Below, in pieces: positions 11,651 to 35,885 of a DNA stretch of 64,000 bases. This stretch comes from Methanomassiliicoccaceae archaeon (lineage in GTDB: Archaea; Thermoplasmatota; Thermoplasmata; Methanomassiliicoccales; Methanomassiliicoccaceae), in contig JAXGZN010000001.1 of NCBI GenBank assembly GCA_040776945.1, positions 608,001-672,000 on the forward strand. The letters are read 5' to 3'. Each line of letters starts with the position of its first letter. The stretch's first letter is position 1. The position numbers and the translations under genes are program-made. The notes below the pieces were generated by a model, which was not told where the DNA came from, searched no databases, and saw only the letters and a program-made list of their open reading frames with translations.

Positions 11651-12586
11651 ACTCTGTTGACTAAATATCCTGCAAACACTAGGCAGTTGTACGCAATGAA
11701 CGTGTACTGCACCTCGAGCAACAATACGTCGCTGCGCTACGAACGCAACGCTTTTCTCCGAGAACTCTCTTGATCACTGAGAACACGATTTCCACTCTCC
11801 ACCGCAGCCGATACACGCGACGCTCCTTCCATACGAACTTAACGAAGAATCGCCGCTTCATGGCCGCCGCGTATTGTCCTGTAAGATATGCTTGGGAATG
11901 ACGGGGCCTTCCTCATCTTGATGCCGGCGTCGATGTTCTGCGAAGCGGCGAAAAAATATTTTCCGCGAGTCGTAAGCGCTGTCCGCGAGCATGCGGATGA
12001 TACACCATGGCAGCGTGCTCGCTGCCTTACGAATGGTGATAAGAGGAACCGCCGGTCAGGAGAGCTTTTATTCAAAACGATGACTATGCCGACTGATACG
12101 GTGCCGTATCGACCACGACGCGCAACTTGATGCCGATCAAGTTATTCGCCATAATGAGCTCTCGACCTCGCGGAGGAACGACCGGCTCCACCTTCCCCTT
12201 GCTCAGACACTTCCACAGAGTGCCAGGTTCGAGCTTCGAACCCGAGCGCCGCACCGAGAGTGCGCAGCTCGCCCTGCGCCACTATTAACGATAAAAGCCA
12301 GGACATCGCGCTGCAAGCGAACGAAGCGAACCAGCAAGCGAGGAAAGCAGTACGGTCGACCTTTCTTACCCAAGTAAATCTCGTCGAGTTCGCTTCGCCA
12401 AGAGGCAATCCATGAGAGGCCGTTTTCGATCTCTTCTGAGGTATTGCTCGGTCAACCGTCCCCAATCTCTTTGTACCGTGTGCTCAAATCTAGAACTGTC
12501 TGGTATGGTTCTCTACGAACCCGACGTGCCAGCGCATGTCGGTTAATAGTATGCCAGAAAATTTAAGCTACTTTAATCAACAAAGC
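11651..12586 (-). mobile_element. degenerate IS5-family (IS903-like) element with frameshifted transposase
   Basis: Fragments MLADSAYDSRK and YRLRWRVEIVFSVIKRVLGE; imperfect IRs actctgttgactaaa (11651) and tttaatcaacaaagc (12572-12586), 12/15 match. Confidence 0.7.
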
Positions 12587-28915: not shown

Positions 28916-31704
28916 CAGTCATCACCTCCGCCGCCGCCGGCATCGTACTCAGGCTCCTCGGCCTCCTCCTCCTCCATCGTCTCCATCAGGTCCTTCTCGA
29001 TGGTGGCGTAGCCGGAGAGCTTCTTCTCCTCGATGCGAGCCAGGGCCTCGGCGTCCTCGCCCAGCACCTCGGAAAGTATATCGTCCACGTCCACCGCGTC
29101 GCCCTGGACGCTGCGGCAGGGGTCCACTCCGTCCTCTCCGTAGCGCAGCTGGACGATGATGTCCGCGGTGTTGCGGACGGTACCGTCCTGCTTAAGCTTG
29201 AGGTCCTCCAGCGCGCTGATGAGACGGCGCTGCATGTAACCCGACCTCGAGGTACGCACGGCCGTGTCCACGAGACCCTCGCGGCCGCCCATGGAGTGGA
29301 AGAAGAACTCCGTGGGAGTGAGCCCGCTCTTATAAGAGTTCTGCACGAACCCCTTGGCCTCGGCGCCCAGATCGCCCTTCTTGAAGTGAGGCAGCGTCCG
29401 GTTCCAGTACCCTCTGGACAGCCTCTCGCCGCGGACGGCCTGCTGGCCGATGCAGCCGGCCATCTGGGACAGGTTGAGCATGGAGCCCCTGGCGCCTGAT
29501 CGGGCCATGATGACCGCGGAGTTCTCCATACCCAGGTGGCGGCCGGCGATCTGACCGGCCTCGTCCCTGGCGCGCCCCAGCACCTTCATGACCTCGACCT
29601 CCAGGGTCTCGTCCAGAGAGCGGCCGGGCAACTGCTCGAGGATGCCCTCGCGGTACGCCTGCACGAACTCCGATACTCGGCGGACAGCGTCGGTCAGCAC
29701 CTCCTTGATCTGTATGGACGCCTCCTCGGGAATGTCCTCGTCGTCGATGCCGGTGGTGAACCCGTGCACCATGATCGCCCCGATGGCCAGCTTGGTGACG
29801 TTGTCCAGGAACTCCCGCGAGGCGTCGGCGCCGTAGTCGCGGGTGATCTTGTCCAGGATCTTGCCCTTGAAGGAGCCGATGGCCTTCTCGTCGATGGTGC
29901 CGGTGATCAGCTTGCCCTTGCGTATCTTGACGTACGCGTCGAGGTCGCAGTCCTCCTTCTTGCACACCGCGCAGTTGCGGCAGATGGACGCCTTGAAGGT
30001 TATGTGGAAGTCCTCCGGGAGGACCAGCGAGAACAGCTGGTGTCCGGTCCAGTACTCCTTCCCGTCCACCACCACGGGCGCGGGAAGCTCGTCGTGCTTC
30101 ACCTTGGACAGGATGCTCAGCGTCTCCTTCTTGTCGAAACGAGGGTTCATGTGGGTGAGCAGGAAGGTCCCGGTGATGTGATCGTGGATGGCACCGATGA
30201 CCGGGCCTCCGAACCTCGGGGACAGGATATGCTCCTGCACCCTCATCAGGATCATCGCCTCAGCGCGGGCCTCGTCGCTCTGCAGCACGTGCAGGTTCAT
30301 CTCGTCGCCGTCGAAGTCGGCGTTGTACGGCGGGCACACGCAAAGGTTGAACCGGAAGGTCTTCCACGGCATCACCCGCACGGTGTGGGCCATCATGGAC
30401 ATGCGGTGCAGGGACGGCTGCCGGTTGAAGAGCACCACGTCCTTGTCCATAAGGTGGCGCTCCACGATGTATCCGACCTCAAGACCCTCGGCGATCGATT
30501 CTGCGTTCCGGTCGGTCACCTTCATCCTGCGCCCGTCGGAGCGGATCACGTAGTTCACGCCGGGGACGTACCTGTCGTCCACCCGGGGCGGGTTCGCTCC
30601 GCCCTTGACCATGTTCCTCAGGAACTCGAGGTTGGACTTCGTCACGTGCACTGGCACGGTGAGCTCTCTCGCCGCTTCCTCAGGTACGCCGACCTCATTG
30701 ATCGAGAGCGAGGGGTCTGGGGAGATCACGGTACGGGCCGAGAAGTTCACGCGCTTCCCGGAAAGGTTGGAACGGAAGCGGCCCTCCTTGCCCTTGAGCC
30801 TCTGCACGAGCGTCTTGAGCGGCCGGCCGGAGCGATGCCTGGCCGGCGGGATGCCGGAGGTCTGGTTGTCGAAGTACGTGGTGACGTGGTACTGCAACAG
30901 CTCCCACAGGTCCTCCACGATTAGCTGGGGGGCGCCGGCGTCACGGTTCTCCCGCAGCCTCTGGTTGATCCTCAGGACGTCCACCAGCTTGTGGGTGAGA
31001 TCGTCCTCGGACCGGTCGCCGGACTCCAGTATGATGGACGGCCGCACGGTGACGGGCGGAACCGCCAGAGCGGTCAGAACCATCCACTCCGGGCGGCAGG
31101 AGTTGGGATCGATGCCCAGAGGAGGAAGGTCCTCGTCGGGAATGCGCTCCAGCCGCTCCCTGACCTCCTTGGGGGTCAGCTTGTGGCCGTCCTCGCGGAA
31201 GGTGGTCGGCTTGTCCAAAGTGATCTTTCCCTGCTCCTGGCCGCAGTAGGGGCATATGGTGTTCTTGGACGCGTCCTTGGCCGTTCCCTTGGCCAGCAGG
31301 CGGTAGTCGATCGCGTCGCCGCCCAGGTCGTCCATGTCCGCCCACTCCTGGGCCTTGCGCTGCGCTTCCTCCTTGGTCATCAGGAGATGGCCGCAGGTCT
31401 TGCAGGTGGACTGCAGCAGCTTCTTGATCTCCTTGACCAGGCCGACGTGGATGACCGGCATGGCCAGGTCTATGTGGCCGAAGTGCCCGGGGCACTCGTC
31501 CACCTTGTTCCCGCAGGTCTTGCACCGCAGACCCGGCTCTATGACCCCCAGGTGAGGGTCCATGAGGCCCATGTCGATCGGGAAGCCGTCATCATCGTAG
31601 GTGTCCGCGGTGATGACCTTGGTGGCGGACATCTTCCTGACCTCATCGGGCGACAGTGTCGAGAACTTGATCGAACCGATCCTCTTTGAAACGCCTCGCA
31701 TCAT
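28915..31704 (-). CDS. rpoA1: RNA polymerase subunit A' (Rpo1N)
   Basis: [34 protein letters not shown]; start at 31704 in ATGA overlap with rpoB stop. Confidence 0.98.
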
Positions 31705-34700
31705 CTTAGGTCCTCCAGCTGAAGGCGCATGACGACGCCAAGTGACAGCAGCTCGTCGAGCAGCAGCTTGAACGCATAGCTTGTCTGGACGAGGTGCACG
31801 TTGGTGTTGTTGCCGCACACCGGACAGCGGATGGCGCCCCGGCGGTCCATCATGGCGATGTGACCGCAGGCGGGGTTGCCGCATACGTATAGGAACGTGC
31901 CGTCGGACTCGTCGAGCAGCCGGTCCTTGATGACCATGGCCGCGCCGTGCCCGATGAGGCAGTCCCTCTCCATCTCACCGAACCTGAGACCGCCCTGGCG
32001 GGAGCGGCCCTCGGTCGGCTGCCTGGTTAATATCTGCACCGGGCCGCGGGAACGCACGTGCATCTTCCCCGACACCATGTGGTGCAGCTTCTGGTAGTAG
32101 ATCACCCCGGTAAAGATCTCGGCCTCGATCCTCTTACCGGACTGGCCATCGTACATGACCTCCTTTCCGGTGGTGTTGAAGCCTGCTCGGCCCAGGGCCT
32201 CGCGCAGTGCCTCCTCCTTCTCCCCCGAGAATGCGGTGCCGTCGATCGAGCGCGCTTCCATCGCCCCGACCTTGCCGCCGATCATCTCCAGGACGTGGGC
32301 GACGGTCATGCGCGATGGTATGGCGTGGGGATTGATCACCAGGTCCGGCGTCACCCCGTCGCAAGTGAACGGCATGTCCTCCTGGGGCACGATGAGGCCG
32401 ACCACGCCCTTCTGCCCGTGCCGGGACGCGAACTTGTCCCCGAGCTCAGGGACCCTCTCGTCCCTGACCTTGACCTTCACGAGACGGGACCCGTTCTCCG
32501 ACTCGGTGAGCATGACCGAGTCTACCCAGCCGCTCTCTCCCGGCCGGATGGTGATGGAGGTCTCCCTCCTCTTCTGCGGGGTGAGGAAGTCCGTTTCCTC
32601 CTCCAAGAACCTTGGCGGGGAGGTCTTGCCGACCAGCACGTCGCCGCCGGAGACCAGCGTTTCCGGCGAGATCAGGCCGTCCTCGCCCAGGTTGGCGTAG
32701 GACAGGTCGGTTCGCGCTCCGCGCACGTCCGGTGAGGGGATCTCGAAGTGGTCCTCCTGCCCTCCGGGATACCGGCGCTCCTCGGCGCGGTAGGTCCGGA
32801 GGAAGGATGAGCGGCCAAGGCCGCGCTCTATGGACGCCCTGTTGAGGATCAGGGCGTCCTCCATGTTGTATCCGTGGTATGATATGACGGCGACGACGAA
32901 GTTCTGGCCCGCCGGACGGTCGTTGAACGCCACGAAGTCCATCGGTTTGGTCTGCACCATGGGCTTCTGCGGGTAGTGCAGGATGTGTCCCCTGGTATCA
33001 GGGCGCTTACGATAGTTGGTGCAGCTCAGGCCCAGCGACTGCTTGGCCATTCCCGAGCCCATGGTCACCCGCGGGGAGGAGTCGTGCTCGGGGTACGGCA
33101 CCACGCCGGCGGCCACTCCCAGGATGACCATGGGGTCGACCTCCATGTGGGTGTTCTCCGAGGTTATCAGCAGCGGGACCTTCATCTCCCCGCCGCAGTG
33201 CTTGCACCTCACGACCGCGTCTCCGGTCTCCGCACCGGGGTTCATCCAATCGACATCGGTCGGCGACAGCGCGCGGGCGCAGGAGGCGCATCTCTCCGGT
33301 GACTCGAACGGCTCGACCGCCACCAGGGAATCCTCTTCCTCCTCGGCATCTATCCATTCCATAACGCCCTCGCGCAACAGGTCGGCCCACTTGACCTTCC
33401 CGTCCCGGATGTCCTCGATGTGCTTGCGGGTGATGACCGGGCGGCCCTCCTGGACCACGAGCAGAGGGCGGCGCAGGCGGCCCTCGTCGCAGTTGATGAT
33501 GACCTCGCTCATCTCCTCGTCGTAGCGGATGTTGATCTCGTTGGACAATAGTCCTTGACGCCTGCCGGCACGGATCTCCGACACCAGCACGCGGGGGTTC
33601 TCGATGTATCCGACCAGGTCGCCGTTAACGTACACCTTCGCCCCGGTGACGGCCTCGCCTGCCTTGACCTCGACCACGCCGCGGTCTCGGAGGAGCCATT
33701 GCACGTCCTCCTCGCGGAAGCCCTCGGACACGTCGATGATCAGGGCGGCGTTCTTGACCAGGCCGCAGTTCTGGCCCTCGGGGGTCTCGTTCGGACACAA
33801 ACGGCCCCACTGAGTGGGATGCAGGTCACGGGCCTCGAAGTGAGGCTGGGAGCGCGTGAGCGATGAGGTCACCCTCCTCAAGTGGGACAGGGTGCTCATG
33901 TTGGACGTGCGGTCCAGCAGCTGCGACACGCCGGCCCGGCCGCCGACCCAGTTGCCGGTGGCGAGCGCGTGCAGCAGGCGGTGCGTCAATAGGTCCGGCC
34001 TTATGGCCGAGCCGATGCGAAGGTCCTTCTTCCTTGCGAACGAACGCTCCAGCTGGTACTTCAGATCCTTCATCAGGTTTGTGAAGGCGACCCGGAACAG
34101 GTCCTCCATGAGGTCCCCCGACAGCTTCAGCCGCTTGTTCGCGTAGTGGTCCTTGTCGTCCTCCTTCCTCATGCCGATGCTCAGCTCCAGCACGGAGCGG
34201 GCGATACGGCCCAGGAAGTAGGCCTTCTTGATGCGGTCGTCCTTGGTGTCCCCGAGGTGGGGCAGCAGGGAGCGGTCGATGATGGACTCGACCTTCTTCT
34301 CCCGGTACTCGCGAGCCTGGCCAGTGGCGAACTTGCGCTCCAGGTAGTTGAGGGCGTCCTCGGTGGTGAACACGCCGTTGGGAGGGTACAGCTTCTTGTC
34401 GTGGCACTCCTCGATGTTGGCGTACACGATGTTGGCCATGTCCGGCACGCTGACGATGGCGTCGTAGATCTCCTTGTCGTTCTCCATCCCCAGGGCCTTC
34501 ATCAGGATGACGAGTGGGATCTGCCCGGAGGCCGCCGGCACGGTGACCATGAGGATGCCGTCCTTCTTCTTCTCCACCAGGGTAAGGGCCCGATACCCTT
34601 CTTTCTGAGAGAAGACCTTGGCGACCTCAAGCTGGGTGCCGTAGCGCTCGTTGTACTCGACCATGACCCGGTTGGGAGCGAGGTCCTCAAGGGATATCAG

Positions 34701-35300
34701 CACCCGCTCGGTCCCGCCGATGATGAAGTATCCGCCGGGGTCCGCGGGGTCCTCGCCGGCCTCGATGAGCTTCTCGCGGTACTCGGACTCGGTGAGCTCC
34801 CGCTCATCCTCCATGCTCTCCTTGTAGAGGTTGCATCGCTTTGACCGGAGCATGATCGGCAGGTCGCCGATGTGCACCTTCTCCGGTTCTTTCTCGATGC
34901 CGTCCTCGATTATGGTGAAATCCAGCTCGATCGGCGCCAGGTAGTTGAGGTTCCTCAGCCTCGCCTCCATGGGCGTCAGCTTGTGCGTCGCCCCGTTGGC
35001 CTCCCTTACCACGGGGTTGAGGATGCGTATGGTGGGCCGGCTGTATTGCGGATCGATGGTGCCGGTCTTCTCGTCCCTGCGCCTTCCGACCCTGATTTCG
35101 ACCTTGCGGCCGTCGGTACGGTCCTGCTCCAGCCTGATTATCCCCCTGCTGGTATCGTCCGCCGAGACCCTCAGGTTGTCCACGATCTTCTGCATCCGAC
35201 TGTTGGGATTGTCCATCGTGGACAGGAAATCGTTGAAGCTGGAGATGTGATGGTTGACGATGGACCGGTCCTTGAAATAGAGTTCTATAAGATCACGCAA
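31701..35300 (-). CDS. rpoB: RNA polymerase subunit B (Rpo2, unsplit)
   Basis: [48 protein letters not shown]; TTG start. Confidence 0.98.
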
Positions 35301-35307
35301 TTCGTTC

Positions 35308-35580
35308 TCACCCCTTGAGCTCCTTGCTTATTACAAGGCGATATACTATGAACTCCTCGGCGGTGTCGCTCTTTCTTCTGATCTGGATTATCCTGCCGGG
35401 ATGTATCGGTCCCTCTATGCGCTCCAAGAGCCGGATGCAGGCATCGTCCCTCCGGATCTTCGGCAACTGGTCCCTGGTTATCTTCAAATCGGCCAAGATC
35501 TTCTCGGCCTCCTGCTCCGAGAGCAGGGAATGTTCTGGCACGAGATCGTGCTCCAAGACGTTCAAATCCGACTCTACCAC
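35308..35580 (-). CDS. rpoH: RNA polymerase subunit H (Rpo5)
   Basis: [21 protein letters not shown]...YRLV; SD GAGGTGA upstream. Confidence 0.96.
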
Positions 35581-35701
35581 CTAGATCACCTCGCCCGTTG
35601 TCAATGGAAAATGGTTTTGACTAAGAGTCAGGTCAATAAAAGACTGCCGCGCTGGCTTCCCGAACGTTTTACCTTCCATCGTTCCTCTCCCATTTCCAGG
35701 G

Positions 35702-35843
35702 CGGGCCCGCGGGGATTTTCGGAGCACGCGGGAAGGCCGCGCGCCTTTCGAACCCCGGACCACCTGGTTAAAAGCCAGATGCTCTTTCTAGGGAGCGGTA
35801 AGAGAACTCTCCCCACCGTCCTACCTAGCTGAGCTACGGGCCC
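35702..35843 (-). tRNA. tRNA-Lys(UUU) with two introns (D-loop 35786-35822, T-loop 35716-35746)
   Basis: Spliced product GGGCCCGTAGCTCAGCTAGGT|AGAGCATCTGGCTTTTAACCAGGTGGTCCGGGGTTCGAA|TCCCCGCGGGCCCG folds as a 74-nt cloverleaf; both junctions form BHB-type motifs; CCA not encoded. Confidence 0.93.
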
Positions 35844-35885
35844 ATTGCAAGCTAGTTCGCATTGCAGAACCCCATGTAAAGACTC

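Follow-up and report, generated by a model that had tools for sequence, protein, structure and literature searches.

A tRNA-Lys(UUU) gene with D-loop and T-loop introns in a Methanomassiliicoccaceae archaeon with a predicted tandem-type splicing endonuclease

The window analyzed here is a stretch of 64,000 nucleotides from a Methanomassiliicoccaceae archaeon (assembly GCA_040776945.1, contig JAXGZN010000001.1, positions 608,001 to 672,000). Its minus strand carries a 142-nt gene for the precursor of tRNA-Lys(UUU), running from 35843 to 35702, with G1 of the tRNA at the former position and the discriminator G73 at the latter. The gene is interrupted by a 37-nt intron in the D-loop, at position 20/21 of the tRNA, and by a 31-nt intron in the T-loop, at 59/60 (Table 1). 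The tRNA-Lys(UUU) gene with its two introns is real, and it is almost certainly functional. What makes it interesting is that, throughout the lineage, relaxed introns at non-canonical sites go together with an ordinary α′2 tRNA-splicing endonuclease (EndA).

The two introns were removed by script (precursor positions 22–58 and 98–128), which yielded a 74-nt sequence recognized by ARAGORN as tRNA-Lys(ttt) with a perfect cloverleaf. No tRNA was found by ARAGORN in the unspliced sequence. The initial annotation had proposed a tRNA-Lys(UUU) split by two non-canonical introns, and this cloverleaf bears it out. The intron lengths and positions that it gave, as well as the pairing elements CUAG/CUAG (bulges GUA, AAA) and CGGGG-UUCG-AAA / CGAA-AAU-CCCCG, all proved correct from the sequence and its fold, and an intron at 37/38 is absent from the gene, as had also been stated. 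The acceptor stem consists of 7 bp (GGGCCCG/CGGGCCC) and is followed by U8 and A9. The remainder of the molecule comprises the D-stem GCUC/GAGC, the anticodon arm UCUGG-CUUUUAA-CCAGG, the variable loop UGGUC and the T-stem CGGGG/CCCCG. In the gene, the strands of the D-stem are 46 nt apart instead of the usual ~9, and those of the T-stem 38 nt apart instead of 7. The predicted lysine identity goes with the presence of the anticodon UUU, U33, A37, A14, G18 and G19, T54, Ψ55 and C56, and the discriminator G73. Since G73 is followed by CC, the CCA end is incompletely encoded.

Table 1. Position of the tRNA-Lys(UUU) gene segments and of the neighbouring features in the window
Feature	Position	Strand	Content	Basis
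TATA-like box TTTAAATAA	35889..35897	-	46–54 nt before the mature 5′ end	read from the sequence
Exon 1 (tRNA 1–20)	35823..35843	-	acceptor 5′ strand, U8, A9, D-stem 5′ strand GCUC, D-loop A14 G15 C16 U17 A17a G18 G19 U20	
Intron 1 (D-loop, 20/21), 37 nt	35786..35822	-		fold, in silico splicing, alignment
Exon 2 (tRNA 21–59)	35747..35785	-	A21, D-stem 3′ strand, anticodon arm, UUU at 35772..35770, variable loop UGGUC, T-stem 5′ strand, T54–A59	
Intron 2 (T-loop, 59/60), 31 nt	35716..35746	-		fold, in silico splicing, alignment
Exon 3 (tRNA 60–73)	35702..35715	-	U60, T-stem 3′ strand, acceptor 3′ strand, G73	
rpoH	35308..35580	-	Rpb5 C-terminal domain; first gene downstream of the tRNA	Pfam match
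rpoB	31701–35300	-	unsplit; after rpoH, followed by rpoA1 and rpoA2	Pfam match

In the minimum-energy fold of the precursor (−73.6 kcal/mol, z = −3.49, with none of 200 shuffled sequences as stable), the hairpin and the central helix of each intron are formed, as are the bulges of the T-loop motif. This fold is far beyond chance expectation. In what follows, a slash within a bulge marks the exon–intron boundary. Intron 2 is flanked by a strict bulge-helix-bulge (BHB) motif of the hBHBh′ type. The T-stem (5 bp) forms the outer helix, and UUCG (35752..35749) pairs with CGAA (35721..35718) in the central helix, which is flanked by the bulges A58 A59 / A and A A / U60; the inner hairpin has 9 bp. 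Such an intron should be acceptable to any archaeal EndA, regardless of its position. The motif of intron 1 is canonical as regards its 5′ bulge (G19 U20 / A, GUA) and its 4-bp central helix, CUAG/CUAG, formed by the exon segment C16–G18 (35828..35825) with CUAG of the intron (35791..35788). The 3′ bulge (A A / A21, AAA) stands opposite the unpaired A14 and G15 and forms with them a 2 × 3 internal loop before the D-stem, which departs from strict hBHBh′. Because A14 and G15 face the 3′ bulge, with no continuous strand behind, the motif is relaxed and HBh′-like, and its sequence fits the published relaxed class HBh′ (Kaneta 2018; Fujishima 2011). Inspection of the sequence and fold by eye gave no other pairing by which the D-loop motif of this gene would become strict.

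Orthologous tRNA genes were located through the synteny of rpoH and rpoB. Eighty loci were collected by RpoB similarity together with 3 kb of upstream sequence, and 67 of them include the start of rpoB. Of these 67 Thermoplasmata loci, 62 have a complete tRNA-Lys(UUU) gene upstream of rpoH, which was recognized by script in 60 and by eye in two (L059 and L065). The copy in L061 is truncated by the contig end. Neither a motif scan of the 3-kb flank nor a reading of the stretch revealed a copy in L058 and L064, and none was found within the short flanks of L054 and L069 (558 and 226 nt, respectively). Intron states were assigned by spliced alignment to the mature sequence of the window's gene, the 3′ ends of L023 and L070 being set by hand. 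The combination of D-loop and T-loop introns found in the window occurs in 26 further loci. Eleven loci have an additional intron at 37/38, four have the D-loop and 37/38 introns, five the T-loop intron only, one the D-loop intron only, and 15 have no intron. At least one intron is thus present in 47 of the 62 genes, with 42 instances of the D-loop intron, 42 of the T-loop intron and 15 of the 37/38 intron. The three-intron genes (L008, L013–L015, L017, L066, L067, L070, L071, L074 and L078) are 164–226 nt long, the introns of L071 measuring about 51, 67 and 34 nt. Introns of this kind had been described in the initial annotation as rare in euryarchaeal-type lineages. This agrees with the literature, but within the present lineage the split gene is the rule.

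The 15 orthologues without intron were found in the Methanomethylophilaceae-type loci L046–L051, in DHVE2, in marine groups II and III, and in L053. They are continuous genes of 73–74 nt, with no insert at either junction. All six Methanomethylophilaceae-type loci harbour the intron-free 74-nt gene at the same place (about 2536–2617 in each locus), and the D-loop (AGCTAGGTA) and T-loop sequences of the Methanomethylophilaceae copies are identical to those of the window's gene. A quick RpoB tree with an assumed root was calculated with FastTree; it has 63 rows, including two rows without a tRNA call, and omits L038 and L045, in which rpoB is incomplete. On this tree, the D-loop intron requires at least 4 state changes, the T-loop intron at least 7 and the 37/38 intron at least 1. 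The intron-free Methanomethylophilaceae are nested among two-intron lineages, which suggests, within the limits of a quick tree and an assumed root, that both introns were precisely lost in that family.

The splice motifs are conserved along with the introns. The four pairs of the D-intron central helix, anchored from both ends, are intact in 39 of 41 genes (CUAG/CUAG in 29, CCAG/CUGG in 7, GUAG/CUAC in 2 and GCAG/CUGC in 1), the two others showing a C-C mismatch. Four further pairs come right after the 3-nt bulge GUN or GGA in 35 of the 41 genes, and the 3′ bulge is always A-N-A, its last A being A21. A full T-intron central helix, UUCG/CGAA or UUCG/CGGA, is found in 39 of 42 genes, where the bulges read AA-N and N-N-U60; among the three exceptions, that of L070 is a parsing error. 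Covariation was measured on MAFFT alignments built without fitting to the structure, with 43 sequences for the D-arm. The proportion of paired cells was 95.0% in the D-arm (81.9% after shuffling), with a covariation score of 0.359 (0.120 after shuffling). The corresponding values for the T-arm were 92.6% (80.8%) and 0.372 (0.143). The observed covariation score was reached by none of 500 shuffles for either arm. When the 3′ partners were shifted by 1–3 columns, 32–44% of the cells remained paired in the D-arm and 37–73% in the T-arm. The high T-arm value, obtained with a shift of −1, is due to some genes, including that of the window, in which a single unpaired base displaces the inner helix. 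As kinship alone can raise sequences above their shuffles without any structure, stronger evidence comes from the shift control and from the double changes of the central helix. In the D-arm, the central helix shows double changes between CG and GC in 3 sequences and between UA and CG in 8, and all 6 pairs of the inner helix show double changes.

The searches of the host genome (2.17 Mb in two contigs, 59.6% G+C, estimated to be 99.84% complete) found no second tRNA with the anticodon UUU. ARAGORN, with and without the intron option, gave only Lys(ctt), at C1:980417. Among seven hairpins resembling a UUU anticodon arm genome-wide (5-bp stems around a YU-UUU-RN loop), that of the window is the only one with tRNA flanks. 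A blastn search of the genome with the spliced sequence returned the three exons of this gene; all other matches were to Lys(CUU) or to short stretches resembling its T-arm. An intronless tRNA-Lys(UUU) elsewhere in the genome, which the initial annotation had regarded as a possible refutation when combined with the lack of a spliced product, was therefore not found by these three approaches. The codon AAA is rare yet present, with 5 occurrences against 146 of AAG in rpoB, rpoA1 and rpoA2.

The gene escapes some of the common search programs. ARAGORN reported no tRNA over the window, and Rfam reported nothing over the window at gathering thresholds, nor in an 801-nt slice at E up to 10. The gene is also missing from the 42 whole-genome matches of the Rfam tRNA model (E up to 10). 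The earlier suspicion that standard annotation may miss the gene is justified for ARAGORN and the Rfam model, but not for tRNAscan-SE 2.0. The accessible supplement of the latter (PMC8450103) lists chr.trna28-LysTTT of Ca. Methanomassiliicoccus intestinalis Issoire-Mx1, with 139 nt and 83.1 bits, as 'novel' compared to version 1.3. This entry shares with the window's gene the Methanomassiliicoccus affiliation and the isoacceptor, its length matches that of a two-intron gene such as the one in L052 (139 nt), and it is very probably an orthologue. It differs in being a table row only, and neither intron positions nor the endonuclease issue are discussed in the part of that source that was available. 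Taken as an orthologue, it means that this type of gene is already catalogued by the current standard tool. The novelty of the introns, which had been made dependent on their not being catalogued for this order, is reduced to that extent, but no paper was found that discusses introns in this order. More broadly, no discussion of these introns or of the endonuclease problem in Methanomassiliicoccales or Thermoplasmata was found in a search that most subscription journals lay outside; the accessible part of a comparative-genomics paper on Methanomassiliicoccales gives tRNA counts and does not mention tRNA introns. Annotation based on ARAGORN or Rfam would report such genomes as devoid of tRNA-Lys(UUU), with a possible distortion of the completeness and codon-usage inferences drawn for metagenome-assembled genomes (MAGs) of Methanomassiliicoccales.

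EndA is encoded by a single open reading frame (ORF) of 351 codons for amino acids (L001:1462-2517, minus strand, equivalent to about 721261-722316 of G000:C1), in which both tRNA_int_endo matches of the genome are located. The order of the Pfam domains is N-C-N-C, with tRNA_int_endo_N and tRNA_int_endo each occurring twice, and identity between the halves is 30% (E = 2e-18). Over its whole length, the protein can be aligned with the α′2 EndA of A. fulgidus (1r0v), and also with the fused enzyme of M. kandleri. In the C-terminal unit, the alignment matches the catalytic residues Y125, H133 and K164 of the A. pernix enzyme (numbering from Hirata 2011), whereas the N-terminal unit has Phe in place of Tyr and Gln in place of His at the catalytic positions. 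At the position of A. pernix W183, the C-terminal unit has an Arg; A. fulgidus EndA uses two Arg residues at that site (Hirata 2011). Given the tandem domains and the triad confined to the C-terminal unit, the host EndA is, judged from its sequence, of the standard one-chain tandem α′2 class, and its architecture predicts a homodimer. Pfam and the alignment place the enzyme in the loop-less α′2 class; this is not the architecture of the broad-specificity endonucleases that the initial annotation named for Thermoproteales and some DPANN lineages. The RtcB ligase is encoded in the genome as well (591 bits).

EndA was sought in the genomes of 30 relatives and matched in 27, of which 26 sequences were aligned together with that of the host. 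The full-length tandem form of ~335–363 residues is found in every lineage except marine group II (247 residues) and DHVE2 (281 residues). Among the 17 lineages that have the D-loop intron, 15 show a net charge of at least +1 over the three residues following (F/Y)(F/Y)G in the catalytic unit, the place of the specificity loop in crenarchaeal enzymes; of the 8 lineages lacking the intron, 2 do so. This turn charge was rejected as a correlate of the D-loop intron, as only 3 independent contrasts are available and the sign test gives p of about 1.

Other disrupted tRNA genes of the genome were sought with a scan for an acceptor stem combined with a T-arm. It produced 249 raw candidates, mostly noise, reduced to 42 after filtering on G10, A14, G53 and C61, and about 12 real disrupted genes. 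BHB-compatible segments were also excised by brute force and the products submitted to ARAGORN; of the many spurious calls, only those with the expected anticodon and a full-length tRNA of 72–85 nt were kept. The resulting count is about 15 introns in roughly 47 tRNA genes, a partial census since tRNAs with unusual T-loops escape the scan. All the genes described hereafter lie outside the window. tRNA-Thr(CGU) (G000:C1:801413-801511, plus strand) has a 25-nt D-loop intron with the central helix GCGG/CCGC and bulges UAG and GAA. Its motif is relaxed, the 3′ site having no continuous helix behind it, and the gene is matched by the Rfam tRNA model (58 bits) but not by ARAGORN. tRNA-Leu(CAA) (G000:C2:1055485-1055594, minus strand) also has a 25-nt D-loop intron, with GGUC/GGCC and bulges AAU and AAA; this motif is relaxed because six unpaired bases separate the D-stem from the central helix. 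tRNA-Arg(UCU) (G000:C1:243449-243565, minus strand) contains introns at 37/38 (about 21 nt) and at 59/60 (21 nt), the latter with the central helix UUCG/CGAA as in the tRNA-Lys(UUU) gene, and the region is miscalled by ARAGORN.

We hold with high confidence that the gene in the window is a working gene, the only detectable one for tRNA-Lys(UUU), and that both introns are removed by protein splicing from a precursor of at least 142 nt. The α′2 EndA would cut inside the 3-nt bulges flanking each 4-bp central helix, RtcB would join the three exons into the 74-nt tRNA, and maturation would include completion of the CCA end and trimming of the leader and trailer. At the 3′ bulge of the D-loop intron, EndA would have to tolerate the 2 × 3 internal loop. 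The folded tRNA body may assist by supplying the outer helix that the D-loop motif lacks, the tertiary pairs U8-A14 and G15-C48 stacking on the D-stem and substituting for it. As no other tRNA-Lys(UUU) was found and EndA is single, the handling of a relaxed motif by this enzyme is logically required. A more general proposition is that the loop-less α′2 EndA routinely removes relaxed HBh′-type D-loop introns, those of Lys(UUU), Thr(CGU) and Leu(CAA), and that the Lys intron has been inherited across much of Thermoplasmata; here we consider the case evenly balanced. If true, the accepted link between the architecture of the endonuclease and the type of intron would be broken, and assistance by the tRNA body would represent a mature-domain-assisted mode otherwise associated with the eukaryotic EndA. 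A clade with a plain α′2 EndA and relaxed D-loop plus T-loop introns in an essential single-copy tRNA would provide a testable counter-example to the reviews, with the intron-free Methanomethylophilaceae as natural control lineages.

Several points weigh against the removal of both introns by this enzyme. According to the literature, α4 and α′2 EndA need a strict hBHBh′ motif of 3-4-3 nt (Fujishima 2011, PMC3239211; Fujishima & Kanai 2014, PMC4033280), and relaxed, non-canonical introns are tolerated only by the loop-bearing (αβ)2 and ε2 enzymes, a tolerance held to have driven the spread of disrupted tRNAs (PMC5829648, PMC4033280, PMC3239211). With M. kandleri pre-tRNA-Glu as substrate in vitro, release of the HBh′ intron at 20b/21 in the D-loop by the α′2 EndA of A. 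fulgidus was neither clear nor efficient (Kaneta 2018, PMC5829648). Crenarchaeal enzymes carry a 10-residue Crenarchaea-specific loop (CSL) with Lys44 at the β3–β4 turn. The alignment reveals no CSL-type insert at this turn in the host EndA, where FYGKRLGSALQLSLIE equals the A. fulgidus turn FYGSEKGDLVTLSLIE in length and is 10 residues shorter than that of A. pernix. No insert was seen in the aligned C-terminal catalytic domain either, and the turn insert is likewise absent from the aligned full-length EndAs of 24 relatives, the intron-free Methanomethylophilaceae included. In the window's gene, one unpaired C lies beside the central helix in both inner hairpins. Finally, no spliced RNA was seen. 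Six public RNA libraries were found, and contigs from four of them (X15–X18) were compared with the window. The five contig pieces are all collinear with the DNA and contain no exon-exon joint, but contigs cannot show the absence of the mature form, and these speak neither for nor against splicing. One of them spans the whole unspliced gene (35614-35853).

In the region 35500-35853, two contigs (X16 and X17) run unbroken from inside the tRNA gene into rpoH, and the end of another (X18) falls on 35785, exactly where exon 2 begins. This pattern could reflect co-transcription and a cleavage intermediate, or precursor RNA, DNA carry-over or chance; the contig end itself is no evidence of a cut.

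The failure of ARAGORN and Rfam to detect the gene, together with its occurrence in RNA-library contigs in unspliced form only, could be taken to mean that it is an unused, decaying pseudogene broken by two insertions. This is very improbable. Every exon position fits a perfect cloverleaf and the genome offers no other tRNA with a UUU anticodon. The split layout is kept in 42 instances of each intron over deep branches, where compensatory changes preserve the motif, and the minimum numbers of state changes on the RpoB tree are as low as 4 and 7 for the D-loop and T-loop introns. It is equally hard to believe that the inserts are retained, the mature tRNA having additional hairpins in the D- and T-loops, even though no spliced RNA was observed and a contig covers the entire unspliced gene. 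The elbow of a tRNA is held together by the contacts G18-Ψ55 and G19-C56. These would be impossible in the unspliced form, in which T54–G57 and C16–G18 are locked in helices with intron bases. Moreover, the exact 3-4-3 geometry cut by EndA is kept while the inner sequence drifts freely, and sister lineages have the same gene without inserts.

A division of labour has more in its favour, yet is still unlikely. EndA alone would remove the strict T-loop intron only, and the 3′ site of the D-loop intron would require a helper protein, a modification, prior intron removal or another nuclease. The lack of a CSL-like insert in the host EndA points in this direction, as do the in vitro data of Kaneta 2018 (PMC5829648): an α′2 enzyme cut mainly the well-formed bulge of the analogous HBh′ D-loop intron, and the loop-less M. 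kandleri enzyme removed that intron only slowly. On the other hand, a single EndA-family ORF was found in a nearly complete genome and no candidate helper was identified. The genome contains at least two more relaxed D-loop introns, in tRNA-Thr(CGU) and tRNA-Leu(CAA), so that cutting at relaxed sites must be routine. Splicing of both introns by EndA is the reading we prefer.

The sites 20/21 and 59/60 are among those used by introns in the tRNAs of Thermoproteales. As in the present genome, tRNAs of that order have BHB-type introns, up to three per tRNA, at non-canonical sites, and are missed by simple finders (Sugahara 2008 and Fujishima 2010, cited in PMC4033280). They differ by an (αβ)2 EndA with the Crenarchaea-specific loop and by 0.84 introns per tRNA gene, compared with the partial count of about 15 in roughly 47 given above. 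The same review lists multi-intron tRNAs for Crenarchaeota, Nanoarchaeum, M. kandleri, M. thermautotrophicus, Korarchaeum and ARMAN, a list that does not include Thermoplasmata (PMC4033280). The M. kandleri pre-tRNA-Glu(UUC) (PMC5829648) resembles the gene of the window in being a euryarchaeal two-intron tRNA with the same D-loop site and HBh′ class and an endonuclease without specificity loop. Its enzyme is an (αβ)2 heterotetramer, unlike the α′2 form here, its second intron is at 37/38 instead of 59/60, and the layout described here, unlike the M. kandleri case, is shared by dozens of species. In ARMAN-2 (PMC3239211), pre-tRNA-Cys(GCA) has an hBH motif at the insertion site of the T-loop intron, 59/60, and pre-tRNA-Pro(GGG) has strict hBHBh′ motifs at 53/54 and 59/60, based on the T-stem as in the T-loop intron of the window. 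The EndA of ARMAN-2 is different, a three-unit ε2 enzyme with its own specificity loop. Another euryarchaeal multi-intron case is Ca. Methanohalarchaeum thermophilum HMET1, whose pylT genes are interrupted by one or two BHB introns (PMC9071458), although both the tRNA and the lineage differ.

The TATA-like box TTTAAATAA upstream of the tRNA-Lys(UUU) gene is a candidate archaeal promoter, which would possibly give a leader of ~20–25 nt. The RpoB of the window is 97% identical to that of a record named 'uncultured Methanomassiliicoccus sp.', followed in similarity by MAGs of Methanomassiliicoccales and other Thermoplasmata. Outside the window, ARAGORN called a tRNA-Pyl of 72 nt with the anticodon CUA (G000:C2:368947-369018, minus strand), which fits a pyrrolysine-using methanogen of the Methanomassiliicoccales. 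Introns of tRNA-Trp contain a box C/D guide RNA in other Euryarchaeota. In the present genome, the tRNA-Trp(CCA) gene, also outside the window (G000:C1:243088-243259, minus strand, 172 nt), has a long anticodon-loop intron with UGAUGA and CUGA motifs, and this intron may encode such an RNA. Within the window, an 'Ala(ggc)' with a 61-nt intron, called by ARAGORN when introns were allowed (12220-12374, minus strand), was rejected as a tRNA gene, on account of its poor acceptor and D-stem. The last ~25 nt of the region 12150-12450 (minus strand) resemble a T-arm followed by a 3′ acceptor end, and may be a tRNA 3′ fragment.

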